Shown: positions 1-29,469, counted from the stretch's first letter. The stretch is DNA of 64,000 nt from Thermoproteota archaeon (GCA_049700215.1 JBNAVT010000002.1:14711-78710), one strand, 5' to 3'. Numbers and translations are program-made. Notes: generated from the sequence alone by a model not told the origin.

Positions 1-183
1 AACTAGTTGAAAAATATCGCCGTACGTGACTGACGAAACAGTGTTCACGCTCACGAAGATACGGGTGGAGGCTGCATCAGGTTCTCCGCGCGAGACCTTT
101 ACTGGAGACAGGGTGATAAGGATGATGAAAACAGAATATGCTATCGACAACATGTTTACTGGGCAGAGCCACATATGTTTCAT
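1..183 (-). CDS. 5' part of a probable secreted/membrane-anchored protein (runs off the window edge)
   Basis: Hand translation MKHMWLCPVNMLSIAYSVFIILITLSPVKVSRGEPDAASTRIFVSVN... is open to position 1; hydrophobic signal-like N-terminus; TATA-like AT tract at ~205-220. Confidence 0.55.
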   Translation of the reverse strand, partial: MKHMWLCPVNMLSIAYSVFIILITLSPVKVSRGEPDAASTRIFVSVNTVSSVTYGDIFQLV

Positions 184-266
184 TAGGCATAATGTTTTCT
201 AAGCATAATTAATAAACATTTTGGCCTGTTTCACGAGAATCCTTTTTCCAAGCGCTTAGCGCGCTG

Positions 267-469
267 CGGCCAGTGTGACAACCCTAGTGTCTACAGCCCC
301 GCCGTTAATCTTCAGCGTAAGCTTGCGGAAGCCTGTTTACCCGCATTATTCTTAACGGTAAGCAGGATCATTGCTGCTCAGCCGACTTTAAAGTGTTTGG
401 GCTTACGTTCAGATTACTGGAATCGAATCCTAAGGAGGATACTGTTTCAGGCTTATTGATAACCATGAT
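267..469 (-). pseudogene. Degraded fragment of a CARDB/Ig-like surface-protein domain
   Basis: Frameshifted pieces SNLNVSPNTL / MILLTVKNNAG / LTLKINGGAVDTRVVTLA; bounded on both sides by GCGCG palindromes. Confidence 0.45.
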
Positions 470-518
470 TAGCGCGCGAAGCGTCATGCTTCACCGAGGC
501 TCACTCTCCAGCCTAAAT

Positions 519-1044
519 TTATTTGGTTAATCCTAGTTTTTCGAGCATTATACGGTATAGTGTCGAGTCTATTCTGAAACCGACTTTAACAAGATCGTCC
601 AATGTTTTAAGAGCATCCTTTCTCGTAATCGAGCCTTGTCTGAAAGATTGAATTATCACGCTGAAAGTGCCTATGGGTGTTATTCCTAGGATTCTGGATA
701 CTCTTCCCGTCTCCCTGTCGTCGACGATAAAGAGTTCAGCGCTCAGCTGCCTGCAAAGTTTAAGAGCCTCCTTCTCGCCGAGACCAAGCTTAATATTGGC
801 GTCGAGGAAGCCTAATTCAGCATCTATTTCAGGTTTAACCTGTTCTCTTAGGATCCAGCTACCAACGGCTTTCTCAATTATGAAAGCATCGCTAATCTTA
901 AGCATCTTGCCTTGGACGACTGCTTCGTTGAAAACCGCCTCAGGGAATAAAGACTTTTCCGAAAGCATCCTTAACCATGTTCAGCCTGCCGACTTTAGCA
1001 AGGTAAATGAGCGGCGTAGAGTTTGAAACAGCTGTCTTTTTCAA
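519..1044 (-). pseudogene. DUF3368-type PIN-domain toxin, frameshifted
   Basis: TTG at 1044 reads KTAVSNSTPLIYLAKVGRLNMVKDAFGKVFIP, then a +1 shift at the GGG run ~943-945 continues EAVFNE...GLGEKEAL...IVDDRE...GTF...GFRID (ORF 519..968). Confidence 0.8.
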
Positions 1045-1045
1045 C

Positions 1046-1354
1046 TCATCCACGCTGGAGAGCTTTCAAGTCTTCCTCAAGATCCTCAGCAGCATACTGT
1101 TGCTGAACATTTCTCTGCGAAAGAACATCGATCATTTCCCAAACCGTGACCCCAGCTATCTCCGCCGCCCTCGGAAGCGTGGCCAATCCCTCCCGGTATG
1201 ATTCAACAGCCTTCCTCAGCCTCCATTCACGTATGTAATGTTCTAAAGCCCTGTTTAGAATAGTCAACTTGTCAACCCTCTCCTCTCTAGCTATCTCCTC
1301 TATTATTTTCACCTTATCCTTGGGAAATCTGGCTGATATGGTTTTCGAAGGCAT
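1046..1354 (-). CDS. UPF0175-family antitoxin with N-terminal ribbon-helix-helix
   Basis: KTISARF RHH strand; AVESYREGLATLPRAAEIAGVTVWEMID UPF0175 motif; directly upstream of the PIN gene. Confidence 0.85.
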   Translation of the reverse strand: MPSKTISARFPKDKVKIIEEIAREERVDKLTILNRALEHYIREWRLRKAVESYREGLATLPRAAEIAGVTVWEMIDVLSQRNVQQQYAAEDLEEDLKALQRG

Positions 1355-1498
1355 TCTTCATCATTGTATACGTTTTAAGACAATGTCCACATATTTTAAC
1401 TTTTCCAAACCCGTTTCATCTAGTTAAAAAGGTTTAACACGAACTAACACGGTCGCACGCGCTAGCCTAAAGGCTTAATAGAACTCCCGTTTTGAAGA

Positions 1499-1918
1499 AT
1501 GTTGATGGAGAGGTTTGAAGAGGCGCGCAGATGGTTTCTACAGGCGTTGAGGGATTTGAAGGCTGCTGAAACAAGCCTGGATGCTGAAAGCTACGAATGG
1601 AGCTCCTTTCAATCACAACAGGCGGCTGAGAAGGCAGTCAAGGCCCTGAGTTACGCTATGGGGCGCAGTCCTTGGGGTCACAGCATCGTCGAGTTGCTTG
1701 ATGGGTTGAGGGATGCTTATCCAGAGACTGATTCCTACATGAGCGATGCTAGGGAGTTGGATAGGCACTACATACCTTCAAGGTATCCGAATGCGTTTGA
1801 ATCGGGCTACCCTGCTCTATACTACGATAAGGTGTCTGCCGGGAGAGCTGTGGAATGCGCTAAGAGGATAATCGGATGGGTTGAGGGTGAGCTGAAACGT
1901 CTTGGAGTAAGGATGTAG
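1499..1918 (+). CDS. HEPN domain protein (HEPN-MNT toxin-antitoxin pair)
   Basis: WFLQALRDLKAA...SQQAAEKAVKA...GHSI...LDRHYIPSRYP. Confidence 0.9.
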   Translation: MLMERFEEARRWFLQALRDLKAAETSLDAESYEWSSFQSQQAAEKAVKALSYAMGRSPWGHSIVELLDGLRDAYPETDSYMSDARELDRHYIPSRYPNAFESGYPALYYDKVSAGRAVECAKRIIGWVEGELKRLGVRM

Positions 1919-1935
1919 AAGCGTTCGCTGAGAAA

Positions 1936-2280
1936 GTGAAGTCCTCGTTTCCAGTTGAAGCCATCCTGATCTTCGGATCATATGCAAAGAATCAACACGG
2001 CGACTGGAGCGATATAGATATACTTGTGTTAAGCGACGGTTTTAAAGATGTTAATATCCTTGACAGGTTTAAGATTCTCCAGGAGTTTAAAGTGGGAAGG
2101 ATTGAAGCATTCGCCTACACTTATGAGGAACTGGTTAGAATGGTGAATAAGGGGAATCCGCTGGCGTTGAATGCGTTAAGTGAAGGGAAACCGCTTATCG
2201 TCAGCCCAAGGGTGGAGAAACTGGTGTCTCTGGTTAGAGAAAAGTATGCGAAAAAGGGAAGAACGTGGATGTTTAAATAA
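1936..2280 (+). CDS. Minimal nucleotidyltransferase (MNT) antitoxin
   Basis: IFGSYAK...WSDIDILV GS-x10-DxD motif; adjacent to HEPN; start uncertain. Confidence 0.85.
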   Translation: MKSSFPVEAILIFGSYAKNQHGDWSDIDILVLSDGFKDVNILDRFKILQEFKVGRIEAFAYTYEELVRMVNKGNPLALNALSEGKPLIVSPRVEKLVSLVREKYAKKGRTWMFK

Positions 2281-2371
2281 CTGCGCGCTCAGCAGGAGGA
2301 TTATTGCCCTCCCTCTGCCAGCAGCCTCTTAAGAAGCGATTGCCAATAGACTCCTCTAGAATTGAAAAGAC

Positions 2372-2806
2372 TTATTGTTTTAAACTTTCCAGCTCCTCTA
2401 CCAGTCTTCCGCAAAGGCTGAAAACTTTCTCAGCCCTCTCGACAGCATCCTTAGAATCTTCCTCCCCTATTACTTCATCCGGGGATAGAAACGCTTCCTC
2501 ACCGCCGTAGAAGCTTGCCTCCCTCTTCTTAACCAAGATCTTAGAGGATTCGGAGAGATAGTTCAACTCCTCTTGGAACCATTCTGGAAACCTCTGTTTA
2601 ACGCTTAAGAGCACGTCTGAAACATCATGCACCTTCGGATACTCTATGCCAACAGCCTTAAGCACCGCTTTCAGAGAAAGCTCGACGCACTCTTGGCTCA
2701 GCCTCACAGCATAAGGATGATTCCCATCTCTGCAAGCATCTTCAGCATCACTAAGCCTAGCCTCAGCCTGTTTCAAGTATGATTGAGCAATCTTGATGAG
2801 CCTCAA
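2372..2806 (-). CDS. HEPN domain protein
   Basis: AVRLSQECVELSLKAVL...EYPKVHDV...KREASFYG. Confidence 0.9.
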   Translation of the reverse strand: MRLIKIAQSYLKQAEARLSDAEDACRDGNHPYAVRLSQECVELSLKAVLKAVGIEYPKVHDVSDVLLSVKQRFPEWFQEELNYLSESSKILVKKREASFYGGEEAFLSPDEVIGEEDSKDAVERAEKVFSLCGRLVEELESLKQ

Positions 2807-3543
2807 ACCAATATCTCCTCCCCAAACCTGTAATCAGGCTTCAGATCCCAATACCAGTTCTCCCTGTCGATGAAAACCCTTTTCGCACCAAGCCTGAGCA
2901 GCTCAGCTTTAAACTCCGTCAGAATCCTCTCCAGGAAACGATCCTTATCGTAAAGGATCACCGCGTCCTCAACCATGTCGATGAAGAGCAGGGGCTTCTT
3001 GGAAGCTTCCTCCTCAGTTAAAGGGTAGAAGCTGAAACCCGTGTAGACGCCATGCCGCCTGAGCCACGCTAACTCGTCTTCAAGCCTTCTCTCCAGCTGG
3101 AAAAGCAGGTCTATCCTCCTCCCGATGCTTCCGGAGAAATCGTTAGAAACGATAAGCAGATCTATGTCACTGTTATTGCCCGCTGTTCCACGGGCTACAG
3201 ATCCATATACTGCTAGGGATGTCAGGCTTAATGAGCGTGAAAAGATTTGAAAAGCGTCGCACAGAACTTTAACATACCTTTCCTGAGCAATCTTATTCAG
3301 GTTCCGCACTGTTTCGGAGGCCAGTAGGATGAAGCTCCTGGGGTCGAGAAGCCTGTAGCGCCTAGGCCTCCCCCAGTCGAAAACCAGTAGAACCCTTTTT
3401 TTATGAAGACTGCTGAAGGCTACTGAAAGCCTGTTTCCACTCACCTGCAGAAGCTCTGAAGCATCTTTAAACGTGAACAACTCGCCTTCAAACTCTAGGA
3501 AAAGCCTTGAATAAACCTCTCCCAGCCAAGCGGGTATCCACAT
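2803..3543 (-). CDS. Nucleotidyltransferase (MNT) with N-terminal winged-helix extension
   Basis: VYGSVARGTAGNNSDIDLLIV; C-terminal WYWDLKPDY; wHTH-like N-terminus; 4-nt overlap with the HEPN gene. Confidence 0.85.
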   Translation of the reverse strand: MWIPAWLGEVYSRLFLEFEGELFTFKDASELLQVSGNRLSVAFSSLHKKRVLLVFDWGRPRRYRLLDPRSFILLASETVRNLNKIAQERYVKVLCDAFQIFSRSLSLTSLAVYGSVARGTAGNNSDIDLLIVSNDFSGSIGRRIDLLFQLERRLEDELAWLRRHGVYTGFSFYPLTEEEASKKPLLFIDMVEDAVILYDKDRFLERILTEFKAELLRLGAKRVFIDRENWYWDLKPDYRFGEEILV

Positions 3544-3646
3544 TTTTTGCTTAACAATTACTTAAGATTAACGATTTATTAAGCTTTACTTTTTGTAGCG
3601 CGCTTGCTCAAAGAGTTGTTACGCGCGCTTCGGATATCTTCGAAAC

Positions 3647-4011
3647 CTAATTGATGTCTCCCAGCATCTTCTTCAGGATCTCCCTATTATAGTCTCTCGG
3701 TCTGAAAAGCTCCTTAAAAGCGGGGAAACTCTTCAAGAAGCCTCTCTTCTCCCCCACCGTGGCCAGAAGTTAGAGAGAGGGAATGCACCACAAGTCGGGA
3801 TGGTGAATGGTGCTCGCGAAGAGGCACATTTCCTCCCAGTAGCCCATGTTAGGATGTACGCATTCAACAATCACGATGGACCCGGTTTCAAAATTTATTC
3901 TCGTGGCTCTCCAGCGATATTCATCTTCGTCTAGAATCTCTATCCTTTTAGCGAAGAGCAGTGATTTCTTCTTCTCAATACCCCCTTTATGACGGGCGGT
4001 TTTCTCTCCAT
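3647..4011 (-). pseudogene. Degraded hypothetical gene
   Basis: Hand translation MERKPPVIKG/IEKKKSLLFAKRIEILDEDEYRWRATRINFETG...PDLWCIPSL*LLATVGEKRG...KMLGDIN* with one frameshift and one stop; flanked by palindromes at 3620 and 4018. Confidence 0.4.
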
Positions 4012-4029
4012 GATCCGAGCGCGCGCGCT

Positions 4030-4158
4030 ATACCAATGGAATTAATACCCGATTCGGATATTTTAGTTAATTATGAAGTTAGAGACTTGAGAGAGGTAAG
4101 TGGTTCAACCTATTGTGAGAAAGGCGGTTTACTTCTCGCTAAAATCACTCCTTCACTA
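4030..4158 (+). pseudogene. Internal fragment of a type I restriction-modification specificity subunit (HsdS-like TRD)
   Basis: IPMELIPDSDILVNYEVRDLREVSGSTYCEKGGLLLAKITPSL matches the HsdS pattern F(I/V)PM...TYF..GD(I/L)L(L/F)AKITP(C/S)(F/L)ENGK; it stops at the palindrome before ENGK. Confidence 0.7.
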
Positions 4159-4267
4159 GCGCGCGCAGCTCAAATCTCCATTGCTAACTTTAAACAAGCC
4201 TGCTTCAGTAGCCCTTGCCTTACAACCTTCATAATCATAGCCCTAATAATAACATAAATTAGGAGAT

Positions 4268-4699
4268 TTAGCTTTGCAAACCCATTCTTTCGAAAAATTC
4301 TCTTGCTGTCAATATTTCTGTTTTCCTGAATTTTTTCAGCTTAAGCAAGTGTTTATCTCCACTGATTATGTATTTTGCTCCTGCTTCAATTGCGCACTCC
4401 AAAACTTTATTATCTAACGGGTCCCTCTTTATTACGTCGACCTTCACTTTTGGGTTAACTATCTTCAATCTTTCTATCAAGGATTCTAATGCTGTTCTTT
4501 TATCTATTTCCGCTTTTCTGAATATCTCCTCGATTTTTGGATAAGTCAATACTCTGGCTAATTCCCTTAATATTTCTTCGGAGGAGTAGGATTCAACATC
4601 CTCTTTTTCCATTAGCCTGGAAAATTTCCTAGCTATGGCTTTTTTAAACAACAGCGATACGAGAATGTTAGTATCTAAGACTGCCTTGATCTTGCCCAT
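4268..4699 (-). CDS. PIN-family putative toxin (VapC-like)
   Basis: AVLDTNILVS...RDPLDNKVLECA...YIISGDKHLL. Confidence 0.9.
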   Translation of the reverse strand: MGKIKAVLDTNILVSLLFKKAIARKFSRLMEKEDVESYSSEEILRELARVLTYPKIEEIFRKAEIDKRTALESLIERLKIVNPKVKVDVIKRDPLDNKVLECAIEAGAKYIISGDKHLLKLKKFRKTEILTAREFFERMGLQS

Positions 4700-4938
4700 C
4701 TTATTGCCTCATCTATAAGCTTCTCAACATCCACCTTATTTTTCTCAGCAACGCTCCCTATTTTTTCAGACAACTCTTCTAAGCTTAATCTTCTTGCTTT
4801 CTTCAAGATTATTTCTTCATCTCTAGTCATGACTATAATCTTTTCTCCGGGCAAAATTCCGAACCTATCCCTTATCTCTTTTGGAATCACAACTTGACCC
4901 TTAGAAGAAATTTTCGTCACCCCTTCTATTTCTTCCAT
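4675..4938 (-). CDS. AbrB/MazE/SpoVT-family antitoxin
   Basis: KISSKGQVVIPKEIRDRFGILPGEK; overlaps the PIN gene. Confidence 0.9.
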   Translation of the reverse strand: MEEIEGVTKISSKGQVVIPKEIRDRFGILPGEKIIVMTRDEEIILKKARRLSLEELSEKIGSVAEKNKVDVEKLIDEAIRWARSRQS

Positions 4939-5588
4939 ATTTTTGGAATAGCTTTACTAGTATTTAAAGTTTTACCAATCCAACTTTTAAATCTTAATGG
5001 CTCCTGAATAGCGTGCGCTAATTGGCTGAATCCTCCTGTCAAAATACTGGAACTCTCGAAAATAGTGGCGGAAAAGTTCCTGAAATCATAATAACGAAGG
5101 AACCTAAGTATCCCCCGAGAATAGCACCCTGGTCTCTAGAAGATTTTATGAAAATAGCTCGTAAAAATCTGCCGGAAAATGATTTAATTACGCATTAAGC
5201 TGAAAGAAGATGTCCCTAGCCTACCCCGAGTTAGCGCGCGCTACATGAAGAGGAAAACAGGCTTCGTAGCTCGCTTCATCCTTCTCCTCAATTACCCATC
5301 CTCAATAAACAAAATCCTCAGCATGCAATACTATACACTCATCATATTTATAAATCGTTTCTAACCGAATAAATTAACTATTTTGAAGATAAAGAGAGAT
5401 GACTTTAAAGTCCTGAGAAGAGACCGAGATTTTCGAGAAACTTGTAAAGGTAATAACGCGCGTGGCGCAAGGAAGATAGTGGCAATAGAAAGGGCAAGCA
5501 TAACGGAGATTGAAAGGTTTGTAGCGCACGCTATAGTTCGGCAAAGGCTTTTATATTAATAATATGATGTGCACTATGATGACATTGA

Positions 5589-6641
5589 ATGTCTGAAGGT
5601 CAAGCAACTTTAGGGCTATTTGAGAAATACCTCACTTTATGGGTTATCCTCAGCATGATTGCGGGCTTTCTTCTAGGCAAACTTTTTCCGGAACTTGGCA
5701 TATGGATTGAATCGTTCTAGGTCGGAGACATATCCATTCCGATGGAAATATGCCTATTTCTTATGATGTATCCAACCATGGTGAACATTGAGTTTGGGGA
5801 AATCATGAAAGCTGCCAAGTCTCCGAAGCCCGCAATTCTCACATTAATGGGTAATTGGGTTGTGGCTCCAGCCCTTATGGCTTTGCTTGCCCGTCTATTT
5901 CTGCATAATTATCCAGAATATGCTGCAGGAGTGATTCTGCTGGGGATAGCGCCATGCACGGGCATGGTTTTATTCTGGATTCTATTAGCACAAGGTGACG
6001 TAGCTAAAGGCGTTGTAATAACTGCAATAAACGCCTTATCAACCCTCATACTCTATACGCCTCTGGCAACCTTCTACCTTGGAGTTGGAGGCGTTCCAGT
6101 TCCAGTAACCCCGATAGCTGAAAGCGTAATCTTATTTGTCGGTTTACCTCTAGCCGCTGGGCAAGCATCAAGGAAAGCTCTTATAAAGAGTAAGGGAGAA
6201 AAATGGTTCAAAGATAATTTTCGTCCGCTCATAGGAAATGTTGCAGCCATAGCATTGTTAGCCACAATCATAATGCTTTTCTCTCTAAAAGGGGAACTAA
6301 TCTTCAGCCAACCTTTAATAGTTGGCTTATTTTCAATACCATTGTTAATTCATTTCTTTACCATGGCTACGCTTTTCTACATTATACCCTGGCTTAAGTT
6401 CAGCTATAGGGATGCTGCCACCATTGCTTTTATAAGCTCAGGAACCCAGTTTGAGGTTGCCATAGCGACAGCAACCGTTATATTCGGCGCTGGCTCTGGG
6501 GCTGCCTTGGCAACAGTAATCGGTCCATTGTGGGAGGTTCCATCCATGCTGACATTCGTAAAACTAGCTCTTAAAACCAGAAATCATTTCCCTAATGATA
6601 ATACTGATCAAATCAAGGAGGAAGCTTGGCGAACATGGTAA
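5589..6641 (+). pseudogene. acr3: ACR3-family arsenite efflux permease with an in-frame TAG at codon 44
   Basis: ATG 5589 reads [19 protein letters not shown]... in frame with ORF 5742..6641 (MMYP, NWVVAP, APCTGMV, FEVAIA, GPLWEVP); TAG at 5718-5720. Confidence 0.85.
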
Positions 6642-6799
6642 AAGAAGTGACAAAGGATGGTAAAATCCTCTATGTCTGTGAAGAATGTGGTTTCGCCTAT
6701 GAAGAAAAGATTTGGGCGGAAAAATGCGAAAAATTCTGCTCCAAACACCACGCATGTTCACTTGAAATCACAAGCCACGCTGTTCAAACGAACATTTAA
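6635..6799 (+). CDS. 54-aa Cys/His-rich zinc-finger-like protein (below the ORF-track cutoff)
   Basis: MVKEVTKDGKILYVCEECGFAYEEKIWAEKCEKFCSKHHACSLEITSHAVQTNI; CxxC plus CxxxC plus HxC; overlaps the acr3 stop. Confidence 0.7.
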   Translation: MVKEVTKDGKILYVCEECGFAYEEKIWAEKCEKFCSKHHACSLEITSHAVQTNI

Positions 6800-7057
6800 A
6801 ACGTGTGCAGCGCGCTAGTACTCGAATTTACGGTTGGTATTTTCTGGGTTTTCTTGACATTAAGTGTTTTTAAAGAAGTTGCAGAGATGGGGCAGAGAAG
6901 AAAATACGCACTTATATTTTGTAAGACTTATAGGGCTGAAAAAAGAGATTTTGGGTCTTGATTGCGTTCTACAGAGGATAGCGCGCGATGCTTTTAAACC
7001 GGTCTCGTTAAAGTGGAGGTGTAAAAACTTTTACTGATACGATTATCACATGGCTAC

Positions 7058-7223
7058 TTACTCGCTTACCATCACTACTTCATTCTTCAGGTCGGCGAAA
7101 TGCTTGTCTCCCGTAACCACTTTAGTATTAGTTTTTCGGGCTGTTGCTAAGATGATTGAATCAGCTAACCCCCAATTACCCACTTTTTTCTCTACGTCTA
7201 TCTCACCTGCGATTTCAGCGATG
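7058..7223 (-). pseudogene. C-terminal half of a VapC/PIN toxin
   Basis: IAEIAGEIDVEKKVGNWGLADSIILATARKTNTKVVTGDKHFADLKNEVVMVSE*; begins exactly at the palindrome 7224-7235. Confidence 0.8.
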
Positions 7224-7321
7224 TAGCGCGCGCTTAATTGTCGATCAACTATGTTAAGCCAATCCCCAGGCTCTGACGATTATGGCAATTACGCCAACTA
7301 GTGTCTGAAACCCCTAGCCAT

Positions 7322-8458
7322 TTATGCAACTTTCCTATTCTTTTCAACCAGCTTCAGAAACTTCTCGAAGTATATTCTCGCATCATAGGGACCTGGGGAC
7401 GCTTCAGGGTGGAACTGCACTCCGAAAACCTGCTTATCCTCAAGCCTAATTCCCTCAACGGTTCCATCGTTCACGTTAACGTGCGTAAGCTTCAGCCTGG
7501 AGCCTTCCAAGCTCGCTCTACTCACTGCGAAGCCGTGGTTCTGGCTGGTTATGTAGATTCTTCCTGTTTCAAGATCTATGCACGGATGGTTCTGCCCCCT
7601 GTGGCCAAACTTAAGCTTGTAGGTTCTAGCTCCGAGCGCTAGCGAGATCAGCTGGTGGCCTAAACATATTCCGAAAACCGGGACACCGTATTCTATTAAG
7701 CCCCTGACTGTTTTGAAAGCATAGTCTAGAAGCGCAGGGTCACCCGGCCCGTTTGAAACAACAATACCGTCCGGCTCAAAACTCATGATTTTATCTAAAC
7801 TGGTATTGTGAGGAACCTGGATTACTTTAAAGCCGAGTACTAGAAGGTTTGCGATTATGGATTTCTTGACGCCGAAGTCTATGAGAACAGCTTGCAAGCC
7901 GTTGTGCTTAGCTGGCTCGTGCTCAATGATCCTGCTCGTGGAAACCTCTGCGGCGAGGTTTCTCTTATTCGGATCCTGAACGCGTCCCGCTTTTTCTAAA
8001 AGACTGTTTACATCCACATGCTCACCCTCATGATACACCTTTAAAATACCGAGTTGTGTTCCCATGATCCTTATTTTCTGAGTCAGCATCCTCGTGTCAA
8101 CCCTTGAAATTCCTTGTACAGACTCCTTCTCAAGCCACTCTGGCAGGGTCATCACTGAGGTGCGGTGGCTGGGAGTATCTATGCACTCCCTTACGACGAA
8201 GCCCCTGATCTTAGGCCTGTCAGACTCGAAGTCCTCAGGGTTGACACCGTAGTTTCCCACGAGCGGGTATGTTTGAATAAGTATTTGCCCCCAGTAAGAG
8301 GGGTCTGTTATGGACTCGACGTACCCGACCATGCCGGTGTTGAAGACAAACTCGCCGTCAACCTCCCCGACGGCGCCGAAGCCTTCACCGTGGACGACGG
8401 TCCCGTCTGCTAGAACTATGACAGCCCTCTTCCTATCCTCATACCTGTTTTTCGTCAC
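7322..8458 (-). CDS. carA: Carbamoyl-phosphate synthase small subunit
   Basis: GEFVFNTGMVGYVESITDPSY; SNGPGDP; GICLGHQ; GHRGQNHP; QFHPEASPGP. Confidence 0.97.
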   Translation of the reverse strand: MTKNRYEDRKRAVIVLADGTVVHGEGFGAVGEVDGEFVFNTGMVGYVESITDPSYWGQILIQTYPLVGNYGVNPEDFESDRPKIRGFVVRECIDTPSHRTSVMTLPEWLEKESVQGISRVDTRMLTQKIRIMGTQLGILKVYHEGEHVDVNSLLEKAGRVQDPNKRNLAAEVSTSRIIEHEPAKHNGLQAVLIDFGVKKSIIANLLVLGFKVIQVPHNTSLDKIMSFEPDGIVVSNGPGDPALLDYAFKTVRGLIEYGVPVFGICLGHQLISLALGARTYKLKFGHRGQNHPCIDLETGRIYITSQNHGFAVSRASLEGSRLKLTHVNVNDGTVEGIRLEDKQVFGVQFHPEASPGPYDARIYFEKFLKLVEKNRKVA

Positions 8459-8553
8459 AGATTTATTCGAGGAGGAAAAGTGATCATCCCGCCTATTTAA
8501 AGATTATCCGCCTCGACGTAAAGAAAATAAGCCGGTGCCAAGTATGGAAAACG

Positions 8554-9294
8554 ATGTTGGAAAGCAGGTTTAGAAGAAGAATCCTTGAGGAGGCTTGTAG
8601 GAAAAATAGTCGGATAATCCTGGCTTTCGACGAGCATGACGGTGGGGATACTGTCTTGGAAAAGCTTCGCTGGGTCTCCGAAAACCTCGGGGAACATTTG
8701 GCAGGTATTAAGATAGGCTATCCTACGCTGCTGTCAACAGGGCTTCCTGAACTCGGGAGGATCCTCGACAGGCTTAGCGGTGGAAACGTGTTTATAGCTG
8801 ACGCCAAGGTGGCGGACATATCGTATACGAATAGCCTTGTTGCGAGACTGCTCTACGAAGCGGGTTTCGACGCGGTGATAGCGCACGGCTTCATAGGCTA
8901 CGAGGGTGGTTTAGAAGGCGTTTTCCAGGAGGCTGAGCAACTTGGAAAAGGGGTTATAATCGTGGCCAGCATGAGTCACTCTGGGTCAAGGGAATTCATA
9001 GACCCTAGCGTCGATAGGATCACTGCACTGGCTTTAAAACATGGGGCTGACGGGGTTGTAGCCCCGGCTACAAGACCCCAGATTGTGGGTAGGGTGAGGG
9101 CGATAGCTGGGAAAAGTCTTCTAATACTGACCCCTGGCGTCGGCGTCCAGGGGGCACCCTATGGCGCTGGGCTTTCAGCGGGGGCGGACTTCGAGATAAT
9201 TGGGAGAAGCATAACTGGTTCTCCAAACCCTGTTGAAAAAGCTTTAGAGGTGAAGAGGAAGCATGGAAGAATCCTTGGTCAAGGAGCTTGTTAA
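8554..9294 (+). CDS. pyrF: Orotidine-5'-phosphate decarboxylase
   Basis: DAKVADISYT (DxKxxD); SMSH; VAPATRP; TPGVGVQG; IIGRSI. Confidence 0.95.
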   Translation: MLESRFRRRILEEACRKNSRIILAFDEHDGGDTVLEKLRWVSENLGEHLAGIKIGYPTLLSTGLPELGRILDRLSGGNVFIADAKVADISYTNSLVARLLYEAGFDAVIAHGFIGYEGGLEGVFQEAEQLGKGVIIVASMSHSGSREFIDPSVDRITALALKHGADGVVAPATRPQIVGRVRAIAGKSLLILTPGVGVQGAPYGAGLSAGADFEIIGRSITGSPNPVEKALEVKRKHGRILGQGAC

Positions 9295-9916
9295 AGATAT
9301 TTACAGGGCTGGCGGGTTCAAAACCGGGGATTTTAAGCTGACTTCAGGAGGGTTAAGCCCCTACTACGTGGACCTGAGGACTCTTGTTTCTAAGCCGAGG
9401 CTTTTCGAAAGGCTCGTCGACTCCTACATCAGCAGGATGAGGATGATTGGCGAGGGTTTTGACGTTGTGGCGGGTGTTGAAACCGCTGGCATACCCATCG
9501 CCACCCTGATATCCTTCAAGACCGGTATGCCCATGGTTTACGTCAGGAGTGGTGAAAGAGGACACGGGACTAGGAGGCTGGTGGAGGGGGAGCTTGAAGC
9601 AGGGAGCAGGGTTGTTATTGTCGACGATGTTTTAACAACAGGCGGGAGTATTCTGAGTGCTGCCAAGGGTTTAAGCGCTTCAGGGGGAAGAGTAGTCTAC
9701 GCGCTGGTCTTCCTAGACAGGCTTCAGAACGGTGTTAGAAGGCTGAGGGAAGCAGGGGTTACGGCTTACTCCGTGATAAAGATAGACGGGTTTCTCAGAA
9801 TACTTCTAGAGGACAAGCTTATATCCGAGCTGGAATACGATAGGATAATGAGATATTTGGAGGGTTTTCGAATTGTGGAGAAACAGGGATCTGATCGACT
9901 TAACCGAGTTCACTAG
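9263..9916 (+). CDS. pyrE: Orotate phosphoribosyltransferase
   Basis: GDFKLTSGGLSPYYVDLR; VVIVDDVLTTGGS PRPP motif. Confidence 0.95.
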   Translation: MEESLVKELVKDIYRAGGFKTGDFKLTSGGLSPYYVDLRTLVSKPRLFERLVDSYISRMRMIGEGFDVVAGVETAGIPIATLISFKTGMPMVYVRSGERGHGTRRLVEGELEAGSRVVIVDDVLTTGGSILSAAKGLSASGGRVVYALVFLDRLQNGVRRLREAGVTAYSVIKIDGFLRILLEDKLISELEYDRIMRYLEGFRIVEKQGSDRLNRVH

Positions 9917-10817
9917 GAGAGATGTGGAAACCCTGTTCAGGCAGGCGGACATCTTCCTAGAGGCTAGGCTTGCGCCGACGAAGATGCTTGAAGGCAAGAT
10001 TATGGCGGCAGCCTTCTTCGAGCCGAGTACGAGAACCAGGCTGAGCTTCGAGTCAGCGGTGCATAGGCTCGGGGGGTCCGTGATAGGGTTCTCCTCCGCC
10101 GAGGGCACATCTGTTGAGAAGGGTGAGAGCATTGAGGATACTATTAGAATGCTTGACAACTATAGTGACGTTATAGTTGTGAGGCATCGCGAAGACAGTG
10201 TAATGCGGAGGCTTGCTCAGCTTGCTAAAAACCCTTTGATAAATGCTGGCGAGGGGCAGAGCCGCCACCCGACACAGGCGCTAATCGACCTCTACACTAT
10301 TTTCAAGGAGAAGGGTACGCTGGAGGGGTTGAATTACGGTGTCATGGGCGATGTGAAGCATGCTAGGGCTGCTAAGGACTTCATAAGGGGTTTAAGCCTG
10401 TTCGGAGTCAGGGAGGTTAGCCTGATAACGCCGAGGGAGCTAATGCCCGAGGAGGTTTTCGTTAACGACGTTAATAGGAGGGGTGTTAGGCTTAACCATT
10501 ACGAGAGGGTTGAGGATGTTATAGGGGTGCTGGATGTTCTTTACGTCGTTAGGCTTCAGGTTGAGAGGTTTAGAGATATGAGTGAGGCTGAGGCGTTAAG
10601 GGGAAGCTACTCCATAAGCTTGAAAACGCTTGAACGGGCGAAGCGGGAGCTGCGTATTCTCCACCCTCTTCCAAGGGTATGGGAGCTTTCAAGCGAGATC
10701 GATAACACGCCCCACGCCGCGTATTTTAAACAGGTTTACTACAGCATACCCGTGAGAATGGCTGTCCTGAGCCTGATACTCACAGACATGGAAAGGGTTC
10801 AAGAGGGCTTGGTATAG
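9873..10817 (+). CDS. pyrB: Aspartate carbamoyltransferase catalytic subunit
   Basis: FFEPSTRTRLSFE; KGESIEDT; INAGEG...HPTQAL; LHPLPR. Confidence 0.96.
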   Translation: MWRNRDLIDLTEFTRRDVETLFRQADIFLEARLAPTKMLEGKIMAAAFFEPSTRTRLSFESAVHRLGGSVIGFSSAEGTSVEKGESIEDTIRMLDNYSDVIVVRHREDSVMRRLAQLAKNPLINAGEGQSRHPTQALIDLYTIFKEKGTLEGLNYGVMGDVKHARAAKDFIRGLSLFGVREVSLITPRELMPEEVFVNDVNRRGVRLNHYERVEDVIGVLDVLYVVRLQVERFRDMSEAEALRGSYSISLKTLERAKRELRILHPLPRVWELSSEIDNTPHAAYFKQVYYSIPVRMAVLSLILTDMERVQEGLV

Positions 10818-10822
10818 AGGCC

Positions 10823-11632
10823 ATGAAAGCCTCCCATTATTATTTAGAGGCCGACGTTGTTTCCAACATTAGTGAGACGAGCAGGGTTAATACGCTGGTC
10901 CTCAGGCTTAGCGAAGACCTTAAAATAGAGCCGGGACAGTTTCTAATGGTTTGGAGGCCAGGAGACGGAGAAATACCGATAACGCCTTCCTTCGCAGAGG
11001 GGGAGACACTCTGCCTGACGATAGAGAGGGTGGGCTTCACTTCGAACAGGCTAGCTTCGCTCAAACCCGGTGAGAAAGTGTTCCTGAGGGGACCATATGG
11101 AAATGGCTTCAACCTCAGCCACGCTGGGAGTTACGTGTTGATAGGAGGGGGAACTGGTGCAGCATCACTGGCACCCGCCTATCTTCGGCTTGCTGAGAAG
11201 AGTGTTGAAACGGTTTTCCTAGTCGGAGCCAGGAGCAGGGAGAACCTGGTCTATGTGCGCAGGCTGAGGGAGCTTGGAGTAAGGTTTCAGGTGGCGACCG
11301 ACGACGGGAGTGAGGGGTTCAAGGGAACCTTGCCAGAGTTTTTCGAGGAAGCTGCTTCGAGAAACCGTTTCGAAAACGCTCTTACGATCGGGCCTGAGAG
11401 AATGATGTTTAAAATAGCTGAGATGTGCGTTAAACGTGGCATTGCTTGCCAGGTTTCCCTGGTTAGGATTGTCAAGTGCGGGCTAGGTATATGCGGGTCC
11501 TGTGTGCTCGACCCAATGGGGTTAAGGGTCTGCGTAGACGGGCCGGTTTTTCACGGGGAGAAAATACTAGAGTCGGATTTTGGAAGATACATGAGGGATG
11601 AGGCAGGCAGGAGGATTGAAATAGTCCTGTGA
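10823..11632 (+). CDS. pyrK: Dihydroorotate dehydrogenase electron-transfer subunit
   Basis: PGQFLMVW; RGPYGNGF; GGGTG; CGLGICGSC...VCVDGPVF 2Fe-2S motif. Confidence 0.93.
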   Translation: MKASHYYLEADVVSNISETSRVNTLVLRLSEDLKIEPGQFLMVWRPGDGEIPITPSFAEGETLCLTIERVGFTSNRLASLKPGEKVFLRGPYGNGFNLSHAGSYVLIGGGTGAASLAPAYLRLAEKSVETVFLVGARSRENLVYVRRLRELGVRFQVATDDGSEGFKGTLPEFFEEAASRNRFENALTIGPERMMFKIAEMCVKRGIACQVSLVRIVKCGLGICGSCVLDPMGLRVCVDGPVFHGEKILESDFGRYMRDEAGRRIEIVL

Positions 11633-12939
11633 CACACTTAGATAAGGTTCTGACTGGAAGAATATATTATGAGGGCGAATTACTCGAGGGATGCGTGGGC
11701 GTGGGCGATGGGGAAATACTATTCATCGGAAAGGAGGCTAATGCTCCATCGTATGATGAGAAGGTTGATCTGGGAAGACTAGTTATAGTTCCCGGCTTGA
11801 TAGATATTCACGCCCATCTCAGAGATATGGGGCTCAAGCATAAAGAGGACTTTTCGACGGGGACATGCGCCGCGGCCGCAGGAGGGTTTACCCTTGTGAT
11901 GGACATGCCTAACACTGACCCTCCTACTAACAGCTACCTTAGGATGATGGAGAAGATTGAGGAGGCTAGCGGTAAAATAGTTGTCGACGTGGGGTTCTAC
12001 TTCGGCAAGCCGGACAGCAGGAGGGAGCTTGAAAGGCTTCTGAAGACTGTTGCAATAGGGATAAAGCTCTATCCTGAGGATTATTATGGGGCAAGCCGGG
12101 GTGAATTACCCGGAATGTTGAAGACTGTTGCGGAATCCGGGAGGAAAATAGTCTTCCATCCCGAGGATCTTTCAATAGTGCGGGAAAACAGGGGTAAATA
12201 CCCTCGAGACTTGAAGGGTGTTGAGAAGCATGGCTTCATAAGACCCTTGGACGCTGAGCTTTCAGCCCTAGATCTCTTCAGAAAGCTTTCTGAAACCGGT
12301 TCCCACGCGGCTCATTTAACAACCGTCAGGAGCATTAGGAAGGCTAGGGAGAACGGTTTCACTTTCGACGTGAGCGTAAACCATTTGGCTCTAACCGATG
12401 GAGACTTGTCCTCCATGGGGGGCGTATGTAAAGTGAACCCTCCCTTGAGAAGCAGCGAGGAGAGAAGCATGCTGGTAGAGAGCCTTAACAAGGGGGAGGT
12501 TCCCATAATAGTTACAGACCATGCTCCGCACACTGTTGAGGAGAAGGGCGCAACGCTTTACGACGAGGTTCCCTCAGGTATACCAGGGTTTGAAACAGCG
12601 TTCGCGGTGCTTTTAGACATGGTTAACAGGAGGGTTTTGAATATTCACAGGGTTTTAGAAGCTTTAACCAGGGGGCCCGCCGGATTCCTGGGGAACGATA
12701 AGCTGGGGAGCCTGGCTAAGGGGAATGTTGCAAACCTAACGGTTTTCGACCCTAAGGAGGAATGGAGGGTTAATCCCGAGGATTTCTACACTAAGGCTAA
12801 GCACTCGCCCTTTAAAAACAGGGTTCTAAAGGGAAGGGTTAAGGCAGTGTTGGTTAGGGGTGAGTTTGTCTTCCGGGACGGTGATATAGTGGTGCCGAAG
12901 GGCTATGGAAAAATATACGGGTTTAAAACAGAAAAATAA
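11629..12939 (+). CDS. pyrC: Dihydroorotase
   Basis: PGLIDIHAHLRD; AAAGGFT..DMPNT; KVNPPLR; TDHAPH. Confidence 0.93.
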   Translation: MTHLDKVLTGRIYYEGELLEGCVGVGDGEILFIGKEANAPSYDEKVDLGRLVIVPGLIDIHAHLRDMGLKHKEDFSTGTCAAAAGGFTLVMDMPNTDPPTNSYLRMMEKIEEASGKIVVDVGFYFGKPDSRRELERLLKTVAIGIKLYPEDYYGASRGELPGMLKTVAESGRKIVFHPEDLSIVRENRGKYPRDLKGVEKHGFIRPLDAELSALDLFRKLSETGSHAAHLTTVRSIRKARENGFTFDVSVNHLALTDGDLSSMGGVCKVNPPLRSSEERSMLVESLNKGEVPIIVTDHAPHTVEEKGATLYDEVPSGIPGFETAFAVLLDMVNRRVLNIHRVLEALTRGPAGFLGNDKLGSLAKGNVANLTVFDPKEEWRVNPEDFYTKAKHSPFKNRVLKGRVKAVLVRGEFVFRDGDIVVPKGYGKIYGFKTEK

Positions 12940-13096
12940 GTCTTTAAACAATACTCTTTCTCCTAGCGTGCGCTTCTGAATAACGACCCTTCTCCATTTT
13001 CAAGACCAGCGTGTGCCCAGCTAGCGTGCGTGCGGATACCGCCCGTCCCGCCGAAGTGCCGATAACAGCCGGCTCGCTAACCATGCCGGCAGCGCG

Positions 13097-13945
13097 CGCT
13101 TCGGAATGTCAGCTTTAGAATTAATAAAGAGGTTTCAGCATTGATAGTCCCAACGGTTCCGGTAAAAGCACAGTAATCAAGATCATCCTAGGGCTGATCA
13201 AGGCAGACAGCGGGTTTGCAAGAGTGTTTGGACACGATGCTTGGACTGAGGGGGAAATAGTTAGGAGCAGGATAAGTGTTCTACATGAGAAACCAGAGTT
13301 CCCCTGCTGAGCAACCGGGTACCAGTTAGTGAAAATGGTAGCTGGGCTCAAAGGGATTAAGGACCCGAGAAAAGAATCCGAGAGTATGCTAAGGAAATTC
13401 GGTCTTGCGGATGTGATGCACAGGAGAATAGGCACGTATTCCGCTGGAATGGTGCAACGCTTGGGCCAAACCCAAGCGTTCGCGGGCAGCCCCGAGCTGA
13501 TAATCCTAGACGAGCCCACCAGCAACCTGGATCCGGATGGAAGAATAGAAGTCCTAGATCTTATACGGGAGACTCATGGGCAGGAGGGTCGTCTCTCCTG
13601 TTATCCGGCCACATCCTCCCCGAGCTTCGGAAAGTGTGTAAGCATCTTGTGATAATGGACTCGGGCTACGTCTTGGAAGATGGTGGGCTTGACGGATTAG
13701 TGTCGAAGTATTTCCTCTGGTCTAGAAGAATCAGGTGTGCTGATAAGGAAAGGAGGGAACGGCTATTCGAAATGCTGGAGGGGGCTAGTGAGATCATTGC
13801 TGGCGTGGAGTCCGTTACAGTCCGGTCGCCGAGCGGGGAGTGGCTAAGGGAGAGGATGGACCGAATCGTCTCCACGGGTATTGTAAGGCCTTCAGATGTA
13901 GAAGAAACAGGCATCTTTTGGAAGAGCTTTACCAGAAAGTCTTAA
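13097..13945 (+). pseudogene. ABC-2-type transporter ATP-binding subunit, 5'-truncated and multiply disrupted
   Basis: ALRNVSFRINKE.../PNGSGKST Walker A; TGA at 13308; YSAGMVQRL, LIILDEPTSNLD; several frameshifts; starts at the palindrome 13091. Confidence 0.8.
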
Positions 13946-14449
13946 AGAATAAGATGGGTTAAAGGAGGAGAACTGCACAAGATTTTCATTTGTCAATAAA
14001 ATCTCTGGGAATGGTTAGCTCTGCTATCCCTAGCTTTCTCTGAAAGCGTCGGGTGAAGAACACTAGGCGCGCGCTACAACGGAAAGTTCTCCAGTAAATT
14101 TTTTAACTATGGTGGAATGCTGGTCGAATCTTGCTTGAATCTTTAGTGTCGGTTAGAGGGTAATGTTTCCAATTATGTTGAAGTACTGTTGGCTTCGAGG
14201 GTTAAAGAAGTTCTCAAGATCCTCTAGAAGTATTGCGAAAGGAGTTTAGCGTGCATCTTATTTTATAGCGCGCGCTTGATGATTAGGATTCTCATAGAAG
14301 GATTTTCCGACCGCGACTTCACAAACCCCCATCAAGCTTCTCTCGGCCAGAGCCTTGGACAGGGCATTGAGCTTAATGAGCACAGCAACGGGGATTCTGT
14401 GCTTAACGTTCTTGAAGTCCTTCCACTCCTCATCTATAAAGTACTTCCC

Positions 14450-14547
14450 GAAGGACGTGCAACAGCCAGAGCCTCGACACTCACATAACCGGCTTCCCTC
14501 AGCCTCCTCGCCGTCACCGGCCCAACGTCTTTAACATCTCCAACCAA
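14450..14547 (-). pseudogene. Helix-hairpin-helix fragment resembling the RadA/Rad51 N-terminal domain
   Basis: LVGDVKDVGPVTARRLREAGYVSVEALAVARP; no ATPase domain follows. Confidence 0.55.
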
Positions 14548-14784
14548 GCTTTCTCTACGATGTTTTAAACACGGAGGTAGTAAACTTTTGAGGAGGAGGT
14601 TTGGGTGAAAGCGGGCAGCAGGAGGAGGGTTGGTTTACTTGGTGATAACGCCCTCTTCAACCGCTGTGGCTACTGTAATCATGGTGGCGTTGCTGAATCG
14701 CCTCGTCCAGCGCGCGTGCCAACTAGTCTTGAAGCCGCGTCCTCGGCAAGATTAATAAAGTTTTGAAGTGTTTGAACGAGCGGT

Positions 14785-15723
14785 ATGCGTATGGATATGG
14801 AAGTGGAGATTGCGGGCCTGGTTCTCAGGTCGCCGTTGATGGTGGCTTCCGGCGTGTTAGGGTCCTCCGTTAGCATGATTAGGGCTGTTTCAACGATTCC
14901 AAGCGTGGGAGCGGTGGTTACGAAAACCGTTACGCACAGCCCGAGAAGGGGCTACGAGAACCCTACTGTCGTTGACCTGGGTTATGGTTTTCTGAACGCG
15001 ATGGGCCTGCCTAACCCGGGTTACTCAGACTATAGGGTTGAGCTGGAACCGATTAGGAGGGATTTAGAAATACCATTGATAGTAAGCATCGGCCCCTCGA
15101 ATGAGGAGGAGGCGGAGGAGATGGCTAAAGAGTTGGACAGTGTTTCCGACGGTTTTGAAGTAAACCTTTCATGCCCGCACGTGGAGAAACTCGGGTTGGA
15201 AGTAGGTTCTGACGTGTCGAGGGTTAGGAGTATTGTTAAGGCTGTCAGAGGGTCCACTGGGAAACCGGTTCTAGTTAAGATAAGCCCCAACGTTACTGAT
15301 TTCATCGAGCTTGCGAGAAGCGCTGTTGAAGCGGGCGCGGACGCGGTGACCGCGATAAACACGGTGAGGGGGATGGCTATAGACGTGAACGCTATGAAGC
15401 CTGTTCTCGCAAACCTTTACGGGGGGCTCTCGGGGAAGGCTATACACCCGGTGGCGGTGAGAATAGTCTTCGAGCTCTACGAGAAGATTAAAACACCCAT
15501 AGTTGGATGCGGCGGGGTCTATGACTGGAAGGATGCTGTCGAGCTTATTCTAGCCGGCGCCACGGCAGTACAGGTTGGGTCAGCCATAGGGCACAGCCAG
15601 AGGGGGTTGAAAGTGTTCAACGATATAGAGGAGGGGGTGAGGAGGTTCTTAATGTCGAAGGGGTTTAACAGTGTTAAACAGCTTACTGGTCTAGCGCATC
15701 CAGAGCCGAATATCCGCCGCTAA
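14785..15723 (+). CDS. pyrD: Dihydroorotate dehydrogenase catalytic subunit (family 1B)
   Basis: NAMGLPNPG; EVNLSCPH; VKISPN; AINT; GGLSGKAIHP; GATAVQVG. Confidence 0.95.
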   Translation: MRMDMEVEIAGLVLRSPLMVASGVLGSSVSMIRAVSTIPSVGAVVTKTVTHSPRRGYENPTVVDLGYGFLNAMGLPNPGYSDYRVELEPIRRDLEIPLIVSIGPSNEEEAEEMAKELDSVSDGFEVNLSCPHVEKLGLEVGSDVSRVRSIVKAVRGSTGKPVLVKISPNVTDFIELARSAVEAGADAVTAINTVRGMAIDVNAMKPVLANLYGGLSGKAIHPVAVRIVFELYEKIKTPIVGCGGVYDWKDAVELILAGATAVQVGSAIGHSQRGLKVFNDIEEGVRRFLMSKGFNSVKQLTGLAHPEPNIRR

Positions 15724-15781
15724 GGCTTGTCGTCTCCCAATCATTCAGTCTTCTTTTTAAGCGTCGTGAGCCGGTTGGGAC

Positions 15782-16702: not shown

Positions 16703-16775
16703 AGTCCATGCACCGCGCAGTAAACCGGGGCAGGTTGAAAATAAACTTTCCTGAAAAAGCTTTGCGAAAAATATT

Positions 16776-21014: not shown

Positions 21015-21055
21015 TCACGCGGCCCAGCGGGTAAATAAATATTAGCCTTTATTGC

Positions 21056-21904: not shown

Positions 21905-21918
21905 AGGAGTATTTAAGC

Positions 21919-22656: not shown

Positions 22657-22707
22657 AGTCGAGACAGGAATAAACGTTAGCCGATACTTAAGCCTTTGCC
22701 GTCTAAA

Positions 22708-24776: not shown

Positions 24777-24779
24777 TTC

Positions 24780-27956: not shown

Positions 27957-28027
27957 GGGAATAATGTTCCACTGGGAACCCACATGTTTATAAGCTTTTC
28001 CAAAGCCCCTAAACAAGGAAGATAAGC
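27957..28027. promoter_or_regulatory. Compact divergent promoter region between hisC and the AbrB-ACT regulator
   Basis: 71-bp gap containing TTTATAAGCTTTT (TATA plus BRE-like on the minus strand) ~30 bp upstream of the hisC ATG. Confidence 0.55.
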
Positions 28028-29468: not shown

Positions 29469-29469
29469 G

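Follow-up and report, generated by a model that had tools for sequence, protein, structure and literature searches.

How did a row of small gene modules, each bracketed by copies of one short palindrome, come to stand beside a carA-like gene? The question is raised by the first 7 kb of the DNA studied here, a window of 64,000 nucleotides (nt) from a Thermoproteota archaeon (GCA_049700215.1), i.e., G000:C2:14711-78710 in our numbering, where G000 is its metagenome-assembled genome (MAG; 2.09 Mb, 85 contigs, 94.6% complete). The palindrome has the form W-A(GC)3-5T-W, with a core of 10-12 bases and perfect palindromes of 8-14 nt. An earlier note on this DNA had taken it for the local site of an integron-like cassette array; it is found genome-wide, where it also flanks housekeeping genes. 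Here, we propose that pieces of DNA were joined independently of one another, forming a pile-up beside carA in which each joint bears the same short palindrome, a proposal that we believe about as much as we doubt. We are equally divided on whether the motif is, in one sub-group of the genus, a "junction palindrome" that is specific to the lineage and spread over the genome. The motif is associated with structural change and with truncated genes, it forms seams de novo, and its abundance follows a gradient among lineages.

Briefly, AGCGCGCGCT was counted in the window with at most one mismatch and compared with 100 dinucleotide-preserving shuffles; 19 matches were found against 1.5 expected, and 0 of the 100 shuffles reached 19. 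Across G000 the exact word occurs 118 times, against once for the reversed control word, and there are 208 strict copies of the form AG(CG)>=2CT. The core length varies in a series, A(GC)3T (53 copies), A(GC)4T (118), A(GC)5T (33), and longer forms (4). The phase of the run is strongly biased: maximal runs read GCGCGCGC 166 times and CGCGCGCG 10 times, (GC)5 51 times and (CG)5 4 times, and the run has A on its left in 138 of 166 cases and T on its right in 137 of 166. This phase and flank specificity indicates one defined word rather than CG slippage. When the 118 exact copies are aligned, conservation ends at +-1 nt, with T before the word in 59% and A after it in 58%. No common sequence family was found among 104 inter-motif segments of 30-600 nt, no insertion sequence (IS)-like multi-copy DNA was found in G000 by self-megablast, and Rfam gave no match in positions 1-15000 of the window at E<=0.1. 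An extended element or a miniature inverted-repeat transposable element (MITE) was rejected because conservation does not pass +-1 nt and the short pieces between motifs are unique; unlike a MITE or IS, whose repeated body has terminal inverted repeats and a target duplication, the motif comes with no such body.

Fifteen palindrome copies lie between positions 258 and 7234. The parts of the array, with gene content assigned by Pfam/NCBIfam search, are as follows.

258-265: palindrome AGCGCGCT, the left-most array copy in the window
266-470: non-coding piece of 205 nt, 75% alike to G000 C47:8145-8353 and to G006:C18
471-479: degenerate palindrome AGCGCGCGA
519-1354, minus strand: unit 1, UPF0175 (1046-1354) with a 149-aa partner (519-968)
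1454-1463: degenerate palindrome CGCACGCGCT
1499-2280, plus strand: unit 2, HEPN (1499-1918) with MNT (NTP_transf_2, 1936-2280)
2282-2289: degenerate palindrome TGCGCGCT
2372-3543, minus strand: unit 3, HEPN (2372-2806) with wHTH-MNT (2803-3543)
3597-3629: two palindromes 16 nt apart, AGCGCGCT (3597-3604) and ACGCGCGCT (3621-3629)
3630-4017, minus strand: frameshifted small gene, 82% alike to the intact open reading frame (ORF) G007:C12:111132-111509
4018-4029: palindrome AGCGCGCGCGCT, the (GC)5 form
4158-4167: palindrome AGCGCGCGCA
4268-4938, minus strand: unit 4, MazE/AbrB-type antitoxin (4675-4938) with PIN_3 toxin (4268-4699)
5010-5019: palindrome AGCGTGCGCT, one transition
5233-5242: palindrome AGCGCGCGCT (exact TTAGCGCGCGCTAC)
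5456-5463: weak palindrome ACGCGCGT
5464-5522: piece of 59 nt, 88% alike to G002:C57:7397-7461
5523-5532: palindrome AGCGCACGCT, one transition
5589-6799, plus strand: unit 5, split acr3 with a DUF7128 zinc-finger ORF (6626-6799)
6809-6816: palindrome AGCGCGCT
6980-6988: palindrome AGCGCGCGA
7058-7183, minus strand: 3' remnant of a vapC/PIN gene, 41 codons
7225-7234: palindrome AGCGCGCGCT, at the vapC truncation point
7322-8458, minus strand: carA-like gene (378-aa ORF), the first conserved syntenic gene; we take it to be carA from its translation

Of the pieces in the pile-up, four are intact toxin-antitoxin (TA) pairs, one contains a broken acr3, two are gene remnants, and seven are short scraps. 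The five units which the earlier note had placed between palindromes are where it had put them and their orientations are mixed as it had said, reading -,-,+,+,-,-,-,-,+,+ along the ORFs of the five units. Palindromes are present on both sides of the units, but three of the eight bounding copies (471, 1454, 2282) are degenerate. Most of its gene calls agree with the family matches; the supposed PIN of unit 1 (519-968), which we too read as PIN-like, but tentatively, has only a weak DUF3368 match (19.6 bits, under the cut-off). The product of 2803-3543 matches NTP_transf_2 and has an N-terminal extension. In unit 5 both ACR3 and DUF7128 were matched, but acr3 is not the complete gene it had been taken for: an in-frame TAG at 5718-5720 separates 5589-5717 (ACR3 profile 1-35) from 5742-6641 (profile 46-327), which may reflect a pseudogene, a sequencing error, or read-through. 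Each first gene does have a TATA-like, AT-rich box 22-45 nt upstream of its start codon (putative, and not tested against chance), and these boxes lie 15-60 nt from the nearest palindrome rather than the 10-45 nt given before. The nine pieces between palindromes outside the five units, none of them listed in the earlier note, are seven short ones (16-213 nt, no family match), the frameshifted gene, and the vapC remnant. Half of the inter-palindrome pieces are scraps or pseudogenes. So many scraps and gene fragments between palindromes are as expected for captured fragments. ORFs of the left flank and the array include an MFS transporter, an Ig-like fragment, and MazE.

Positions 1-9300 of the window were compared by blastn with the 16 other genomes of the genus set (17 with G000, all MAGs). 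Conserved synteny with all relatives begins at carA, at 7313-7341. Each unit is found alone, on unrelated contigs of same-genus genomes, and no two units of the array are adjacent in any relative. Unit 1 (515-1438) stands alone in G003, G012, and G004 with 84-85% identity, in genomes without the motif. Unit 2 (1466-2280) recurs at G008:C9:66916-67730 with 93% identity; the homology begins with the base that follows the left palindrome and ends with the stop codon, 2 nt short of the right one, and the distance from palindrome to cargo is 0-2 nt in G000 versus 116 and 159 nt in G008. Unit 3 (2387-3591) is found in nine same-genus genomes, and in G002 and G008 it lies between the orthologues of G000 C23:18824 and 18899, where G000 itself has ~100 nt of unrelated DNA and no palindrome; unit 3 therefore occupies different loci in close relatives. 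Unit 4 (4290-4992) occurs alone in G014, G008, G002, and G005, and region 5590-6579 of unit 5 is matched in three genomes. Among the lesser parts, 3647-4018 is matched in G007 (this small-gene homology ends at the palindrome at 4018), 7053-7230 is matched at seven places in six genomes, and 264-470 and 5459-5523 form separate small blocks. The idea that the units are modules gained, lost, or relocated at palindromes is thus borne out: they stand singly elsewhere in the genus, homology ends at the palindrome or within ~25 nt of it, and the variable joints among relatives coincide with the motif.

The surroundings of carA vary in the same manner. G002 has another palindrome-rich array there with unrelated cargo, whose pieces have their matches on scattered G000 contigs and end at palindromes of G002 itself, and in G008 and G010 carA abuts a block that sits on contig C6 in G000. 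Please note that in G003, G004, and G012, where the motif is missing, the neighbours of the units also map to scattered G000 contigs; this equal shuffling in motif-free genomes indicates that module shuffling does not need the motif. At the empty unit 3 site of G000 (C23:18840-18870), a 13-14-nt word is tandemly duplicated (TTTGCACTCCTAG twice), which may be a repair footprint.

The motif arises de novo at deletion junctions inside genes, and it does so in two independent lineages. A gene that we take from its translation to be GNAT-like (G000 C29:~7120-7200) is complete only in G002 and carries five different deletions in G000, G010, G007, G008, and G009. The G000 gene has lost 320 internal nt and has an early stop; its native flanks meet at the joint GGCTTA[GCGCGCGC]TAATGC. 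In G010 another deletion removed the promoter and the 5' part, and the joint reads AATAATA[GCGCGCG]ACC. Elsewhere, otherwise conserved DNA has been swapped for the motif at C29:13618 (~29 nt) and at C4:72974 (~21 nt). Between G008 and G002, one motif sits at the joint of a ~250-nt deletion and another replaces a patch of 6-10 nt, and at G000 C2:10561-10569 a (GC)3 copy joins the flanks of a place where G002 has 984 nt containing a (GC)4 copy.

The vapC at the right end of the array is truncated exactly at a palindrome. The full frame, 160-165 aa with an upstream antitoxin, is present in G003, G008, G013, G014, and G006, while the G011 frame has only 76 aa; in G014 the pair likewise stands beside carA. 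The G000 homology ends at the palindrome GTA[GCGCGCGC]TTAA (7225), and at this cut point the relatives have native TCGCGCGA (G003, G008, G011, G006), GCGCG (G013), or neither (G014). These joint events fit base loss at a break followed by sealing with the palindrome; they do not fit a precise site-to-site exchange. Repeated independent decay of one locus, as in the GNAT-like gene, is unusual.

We placed the 208 strict G000 sites on a gene model of our own, built from ORFs (2092 genes, 88% of the genome covered): 130 are intergenic and 13 lie at a gene edge, while 20,000 random positions fall into these two classes in 11.3% and 1.3% of cases, and most of the 65 "genic" ones fall within 80 nt of an ORF end. 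The spacers carrying a motif are tandem (68), divergent (29), convergent (23), or at contig ends (10). Relative to starts and stops, the G000 motif sites favour neither a side nor a distance, which speaks against a promoter or terminator element. The overall density is ~1 per 5-10 kb, and the copies are clustered: 77 spacings are below 300 nt, where 17 would be expected. At least 15 loci of G000 have arrays of 5-9 relaxed matches, the window array being among the largest. The 99 proteins in and around 12 arrays include TA domains (PIN four times, MazE, HicB, and RHH twice each), and the products of housekeeping genes are among them as well: glutamine synthetase, a class-I aminoacyl-tRNA synthetase, glutamate dehydrogenase, phosphotransacetylase, and an EF-Tu-type GTPase.

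Counts of the exact word were made over 26 genomes of the order, again all MAGs. G000 has 118 copies, followed by G008 (88), G002 (70), G009 (33), G007 (32), G006 (18), G010 (16), G013 (6), G011 (3), and G014 (3); the remaining seven genus genomes, including four with a completeness of at least 91%, have 0. Other families have 0-9, near the reversed-word control. This gradient of counts indicates that the motif expanded inside one genus. Orthologous copies are kept in both G000 and G002 at C58:962, C58:2214, and C75:1329.

The association with structural change extends beyond the array. In 7300-64000 of the window, 11 of 11 relaxed matches lie in alignment gaps against G002, G008, G009, or G007, and an 18-kb block (14745-32833) conserved in all four relatives has no motif copy. 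In a 279-kb sample of G002, whose contigs were partly picked for array-unit homologues, 81 of 90 motif matches are in gaps or at block edges, while 57.5% of that DNA aligns to G000. When G000 spacers were compared with G002, the motif was found in 3 of 66 that align through and in 36 of 99 that are interrupted or unaligned (Fisher odds ratio 12, p=6.6e-7, the sites not being fully independent). Among collinear gap events between G000 and G002, 15 of 22 have the motif in at least one of the two genomes.

Variation is seemingly present within the sampled population as well. Many contig ends of G000 share an overlap of exactly 55 nt, and (GC)>=3 stands at the start of this terminal 55-mer in 7 of 170 ends, where 1.41 would be expected (P=6.6e-4). 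One such 55-mer is a point of convergence of contigs C28 and C10; it is directly preceded by TA(GC)5 in C28 and by unrelated DNA in C10, and one motif copy differs in core length between contigs C41 and C69. These contig-end patterns suggest motif variation within the population. A Logan contig of 7395 nt, from what is likely the source run, spans positions 701-8095 of the window with 0 differences. A second public run of low depth yielded small pieces with loose, unlike ends; these start at 14076 and 14267, close to two palindromes (14066 and 14267), which is a hint only. No joints were reported in public-run data, where contigs only were covered.

How might such seams be made? In our proposal, a sequence-specific cut-and-join process would seal broken or captured ends through a self-complementary GC linker. 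Two half-sites of the type ...AGCGC and GCGCT... would meet to form the dominant 10-mer, and a different register would account for the (GC)3 and (GC)5 forms. Copies already in place might then act as preferred break points or as points of short-homology exchange, at which pieces could be added, trimmed, or swapped in either orientation; TA pairs would accumulate as they are both tolerated and addictive. Since no enzyme was found, the linker step is pure inference. Only tentatively, and with a good deal of doubt, do we suggest that one archaeal lineage has an undescribed, sequence-specific end-joining or "stitching" activity, of which A(GC)3-5T would be the mark, and that this activity captures, trims, and shuffles cassettes without an integrase and reuses its seams as break and exchange points.

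Several points weigh against the proposal. The orthologous copies conserved in G000 and G002 also fit a selected function. The deletions in the GNAT-like genes of G007, G008, and G009 have no motif, that of G009 lying at an ATGC microhomology, and 7 of the 22 collinear gap events between G000 and G002 are motif-free; such motif-free events and deletions indicate that this process is not the only one at work. None of the eleven candidate enzyme families, three of which were searched in G000 only, showed a correlation with the motif. The gene calls rest on our own ORF model. All genomes are MAGs, in which a repeat-borne enzyme or transposon may stay unassembled, and technical causes, too, can make assemblies break at GC palindromes. 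The choice of the G002 sample makes the gap statistics lean towards variable DNA.

The alternative that survives best is the one closest to the earlier note, i.e., an integron-like site-specific system in which the palindrome is the att core, circular cassettes carry one copy each, the recombinase is of an unrecognised type, and a symmetric site gives random orientation. It would account for units that are bracketed on both sides and found singly elsewhere, for arrays at several loci, and for the single copy at G000 C2:10561-10569 opposite the 984-nt insert with its own copy in G002. The 1.8-kb insert at 12927-14717 of the window has empty sites in G002 and G010:C25 that hold exactly one copy, again as expected of such a system. 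We nevertheless consider it unlikely. PF00589 (tyrosine recombinase) has 0 matches in G000 and does not correlate with the motif across the genus; the Y1 transposase PF01797 has 0 matches in G000 too, and the only resolvase is one serine recombinase fragment with four stops. Neither array end has a recombinase, as judged from the window ORFs and the left flank. The differing palindrome-cargo distance of unit 2 in G000 and G008, the copies at in-gene deletion joints where relatives have no site, and the many "cassettes" that are scraps of 16-213 nt are all hard to reconcile with exact recombination. Known recombinase sites are longer than this motif, which has 8-14 bp and a core of variable length; this also weighs against it.

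The integron frame itself is not supported: besides the absence of PF00589, the unit borders have no long imperfect inverted repeats and no attC-like fold, the motif is genome-wide, and copies form de novo at deletion joints. The likeness to integrons and to clusters of attC sites lacking integron integrases (CALINs) is in TA-rich arrays of small modules and in cassette gain, loss, and reordering with breakpoints at a repeated boundary element. The archaeal integrons described by Ghaly et al. (2022, PMC9668308) have IntI, folding attC sites, and co-oriented ORFs. In integrons generally, IntI is a tyrosine recombinase with a specific domain of its own, encoded beside the array; attC sites measure ~55-140 nt and are imperfect inverted repeats that fold in single-stranded form; and most cassettes are read from Pc. 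In our array intI and attC are missing and cassettes are not co-oriented and promoterless: the orientation is mixed, the units have their own TATA-like boxes, and the element is genome-wide, with copies at deletion joints. What results is integron-like in its modular cassettes and their random orientation; neither the machinery nor the site is.

The search for an enzyme was extended across the genus. None of PF00145, PF01555, PF00589, Ku, RVT_1, Prim-Pol, PolX palm, and ATP ligase tracks the motif. In G000, where serine recombinase and TnpB-type Zn ribbon were also searched, the latter gave five matches. Fourteen multi-copy protein families of G000 were annotated, with no transposase among them; the matches are ABC ATPases, oxidoreductases, URO-D, HEPN, PIN, and the like. 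One ~230-aa family (G000 C10:19821-20726 and nine paralogues, 22-64% identity, no Pfam/NCBIfam match) was considered as a candidate, as 6 of its 10 G000 copies lie near motifs; it is also present in motif-free genomes, i.e., in 15 of the 16 other genus genomes and in two genomes of family f3, without correlation with the motif, and was dropped. Two side observations belong here. No XerA-type recombinase was detected in G000, and 7 of the 17 genus genomes are likewise without a PF00589 match. At G000 C19:10071-11562 there is a decayed IS607-like pair, consisting of the serine-recombinase fragment with its four TAG stops and a TnpB-type zinc-ribbon fragment.

Could the palindromes be what a departed transposon left behind? 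A cut-and-paste element that targets TA and has GC tips would leave excision footprints of the type TA + GCGC | GCGC + TA, i.e., TAGCGCGCGCTA, with (GC)3 or (GC)5 when three or five end bases stay; adjacent deletions and local hopping would link it to junctions and clusters. The symmetric TA-(GC)n-TA anatomy, the length series in even steps (53/118/33), the lineage-specific gradient, the 77 close spacings against 17 expected, and the native TA that flanks the G000 GNAT-like joint left and right all agree with this. We regard it as improbable all the same: G000 has no IS-like multi-copy DNA and no transposase among its annotated multi-copy families, although MAGs can miss IS copies, which makes this absence weak evidence. 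The outer T/A is conserved in only ~60% of copies against 83% for the inner A/T, and footprints are expected to be lost, not kept, when flanks are resected.

About equally improbable, in our judgement, is a selected protein-binding site (a boundary, insulator, or nucleoid element, or an operator), whose link to variable DNA would be indirect, new genes being in need of sites. The strict intergenic bias, the perfect dyad symmetry familiar from dimeric DNA-binding proteins, the orthologous copies kept between G000 and G002, and the flanked housekeeping genes are what one would expect of it. However, the copies keep no fixed distance or side to starts and stops, the half-site spacing varies in 2-bp steps, and copies lie within dead genes and at the joints of deletions. 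The motif is missing from sister species that carry the same genes, and copies cluster in gene-free scraps 60-200 nt apart.

A by-product of restriction-modification or methylation at GCGCGC or CGCG, through religation of cut fragments or a methylase-linked repair bias as proposed for HIP1, is in our view very improbable. HIP1, a highly iterated palindrome with the sequence GCGATCGC, belongs to cyanobacteria (Robinson et al. 1995/1997, cited in Elhai 2015, PMC4390886), and the latter paper links its abundance to cognate methyltransferases. Religation within a (GC)n run would indeed regenerate the site on both sides, in either orientation and with variable n. Against it, no motif-rich genome has a match to PF00145 (C5-methyltransferase), and PF01555 (N4/N6-methyltransferase) is matched in all 17 genus genomes without correlation, these being the two methylase classes searched. 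The A...T flanks and the strong phase bias would not be explained by an enzyme for GCGCGC or CGCG, and de novo copies arise at places that had no site. Chance or an assembly artefact, which the MAG origin of all genomes and the difficulty of sequencing GC-rich palindromes might bring to mind, is hardly credible, since no shuffle reached the observed count, the same motif is in at least seven separately assembled genomes with some copies orthologous, the 12 nt of the motif are much shorter than the contig overlap of apparently 55 nt, and an independent Logan contig (though from the likely source sample) agrees over 701-8095.

Returning to the reading of the palindrome as a seam between joined pieces, how does it compare with known systems? 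The nearest described counterpart is HIP1, which lies inside genes as well as between them at ~1 per kb, whereas the motif here is intergenic (143 of 208 sites intergenic or at an edge against 12.6% expected) and occurs at ~1 per 5-10 kb. The two share a many-fold genome-wide over-representation and a steep range of abundance, here from 118 to 0 within one genus. As described by Elhai (PMC4390886), HIP1 is likewise a short, perfect, highly over-represented palindrome with fast gain and loss between relatives and an unexplained mechanism, and earlier authors have connected it with recombination, either site-specific or illegitimate. According to another source (PMC5861425), it exceeds one motif per gene on average in some genomes. 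It differs from our motif in sequence and in domain of life. It is tied to two orphan methylases and reportedly spreads by substitutions (PMC4390886), while no methylase family searched here tracks the motif, which comes with deletions, patches, and inserts.

Bacterial REP/BIME elements resemble the motif as extragenic, species-specific, clustered short palindromes present in hundreds per genome. They are imperfect palindromes of 20-40 nt with a conserved head and need a Y1 (RAYT) transposase, unlike the perfect repeat of 8-14 nt found here in a genome with no PF01797 match. The mobile G+C clusters of yeast mitochondrial DNA, like similar palindromes of organelles, are 30-60 nt long with internal structure, are hot spots of deletion and recombination, and are in some cases flanked by TAG. 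Our motif shares with them a GC-rich palindrome in AT-richer spacers; it is, in contrast, a bare (GC)3-5 core in the chromosome of an archaeon, and its TAG/CTA flanks are inverted, not direct. Our literature search, which did not cover the archaeal integron lists of PMC9668308, found no paper on such an iterated palindrome in archaea, and the published description of the Brockarchaeota mentions none of palindrom-, integron, repeat, or mobile.

If the seam reading is right, a word of 10-12 bases records the points where DNA was cut and rejoined, which would provide a readable map of gene capture, loss, and relocation in a phylum that to our knowledge has no cultured member. It would also point to a DNA-joining or recombination activity without a recognisable enzyme; none of Ku, tyrosine recombinase, RAYT, and reverse transcriptase was found. 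Such an activity could explain how TA and defence islands are built in archaea without classical mobile-element machinery, and highly iterated palindromes would gain a case with a directly testable link to rearrangement. The graded abundance (118 to 0 across sister species) makes phyletic profiling for the responsible gene feasible. We think that there is a real chance that the motif marks a new joining mechanism.

The remaining palindrome groups of the window lie to the right of carA.

12927-14717: second array, with seven palindromes (12965-14717), a 1.8-kb insert found only in G000 between conserved genes
40376-40488: two palindromes; all four chained relatives differ here, with 0.5-2.5 kb of other DNA
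42480-42737: two palindromes inside a 428-nt stretch absent from G002 and G008
46497-46737: 8.5-kb segment (46497-54974) with four palindromes at its left edge

The insert at 12927-14717 contains an ABC ATPase fragment (13329-13649) and gene scraps. Its empty sites have one palindrome in G002 and G010:C25 and none in G009, G007, and G010:C21. The two G010 places, C25:20905-21065 and C21:295-450, show the same spacer and flanking genes with and without the palindrome; the two versions may reflect a strain mixture in this MAG (5% contamination) or a duplication. The segment 46497-54974 is present in G000 and G007 and, to at least 52106 where the contig ends, in G008, and it is absent from G002 and G009. 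It carries ORFs of 876, 368, 473, 333, and 329 aa, and the corresponding empty site in G009 is 98 nt long.

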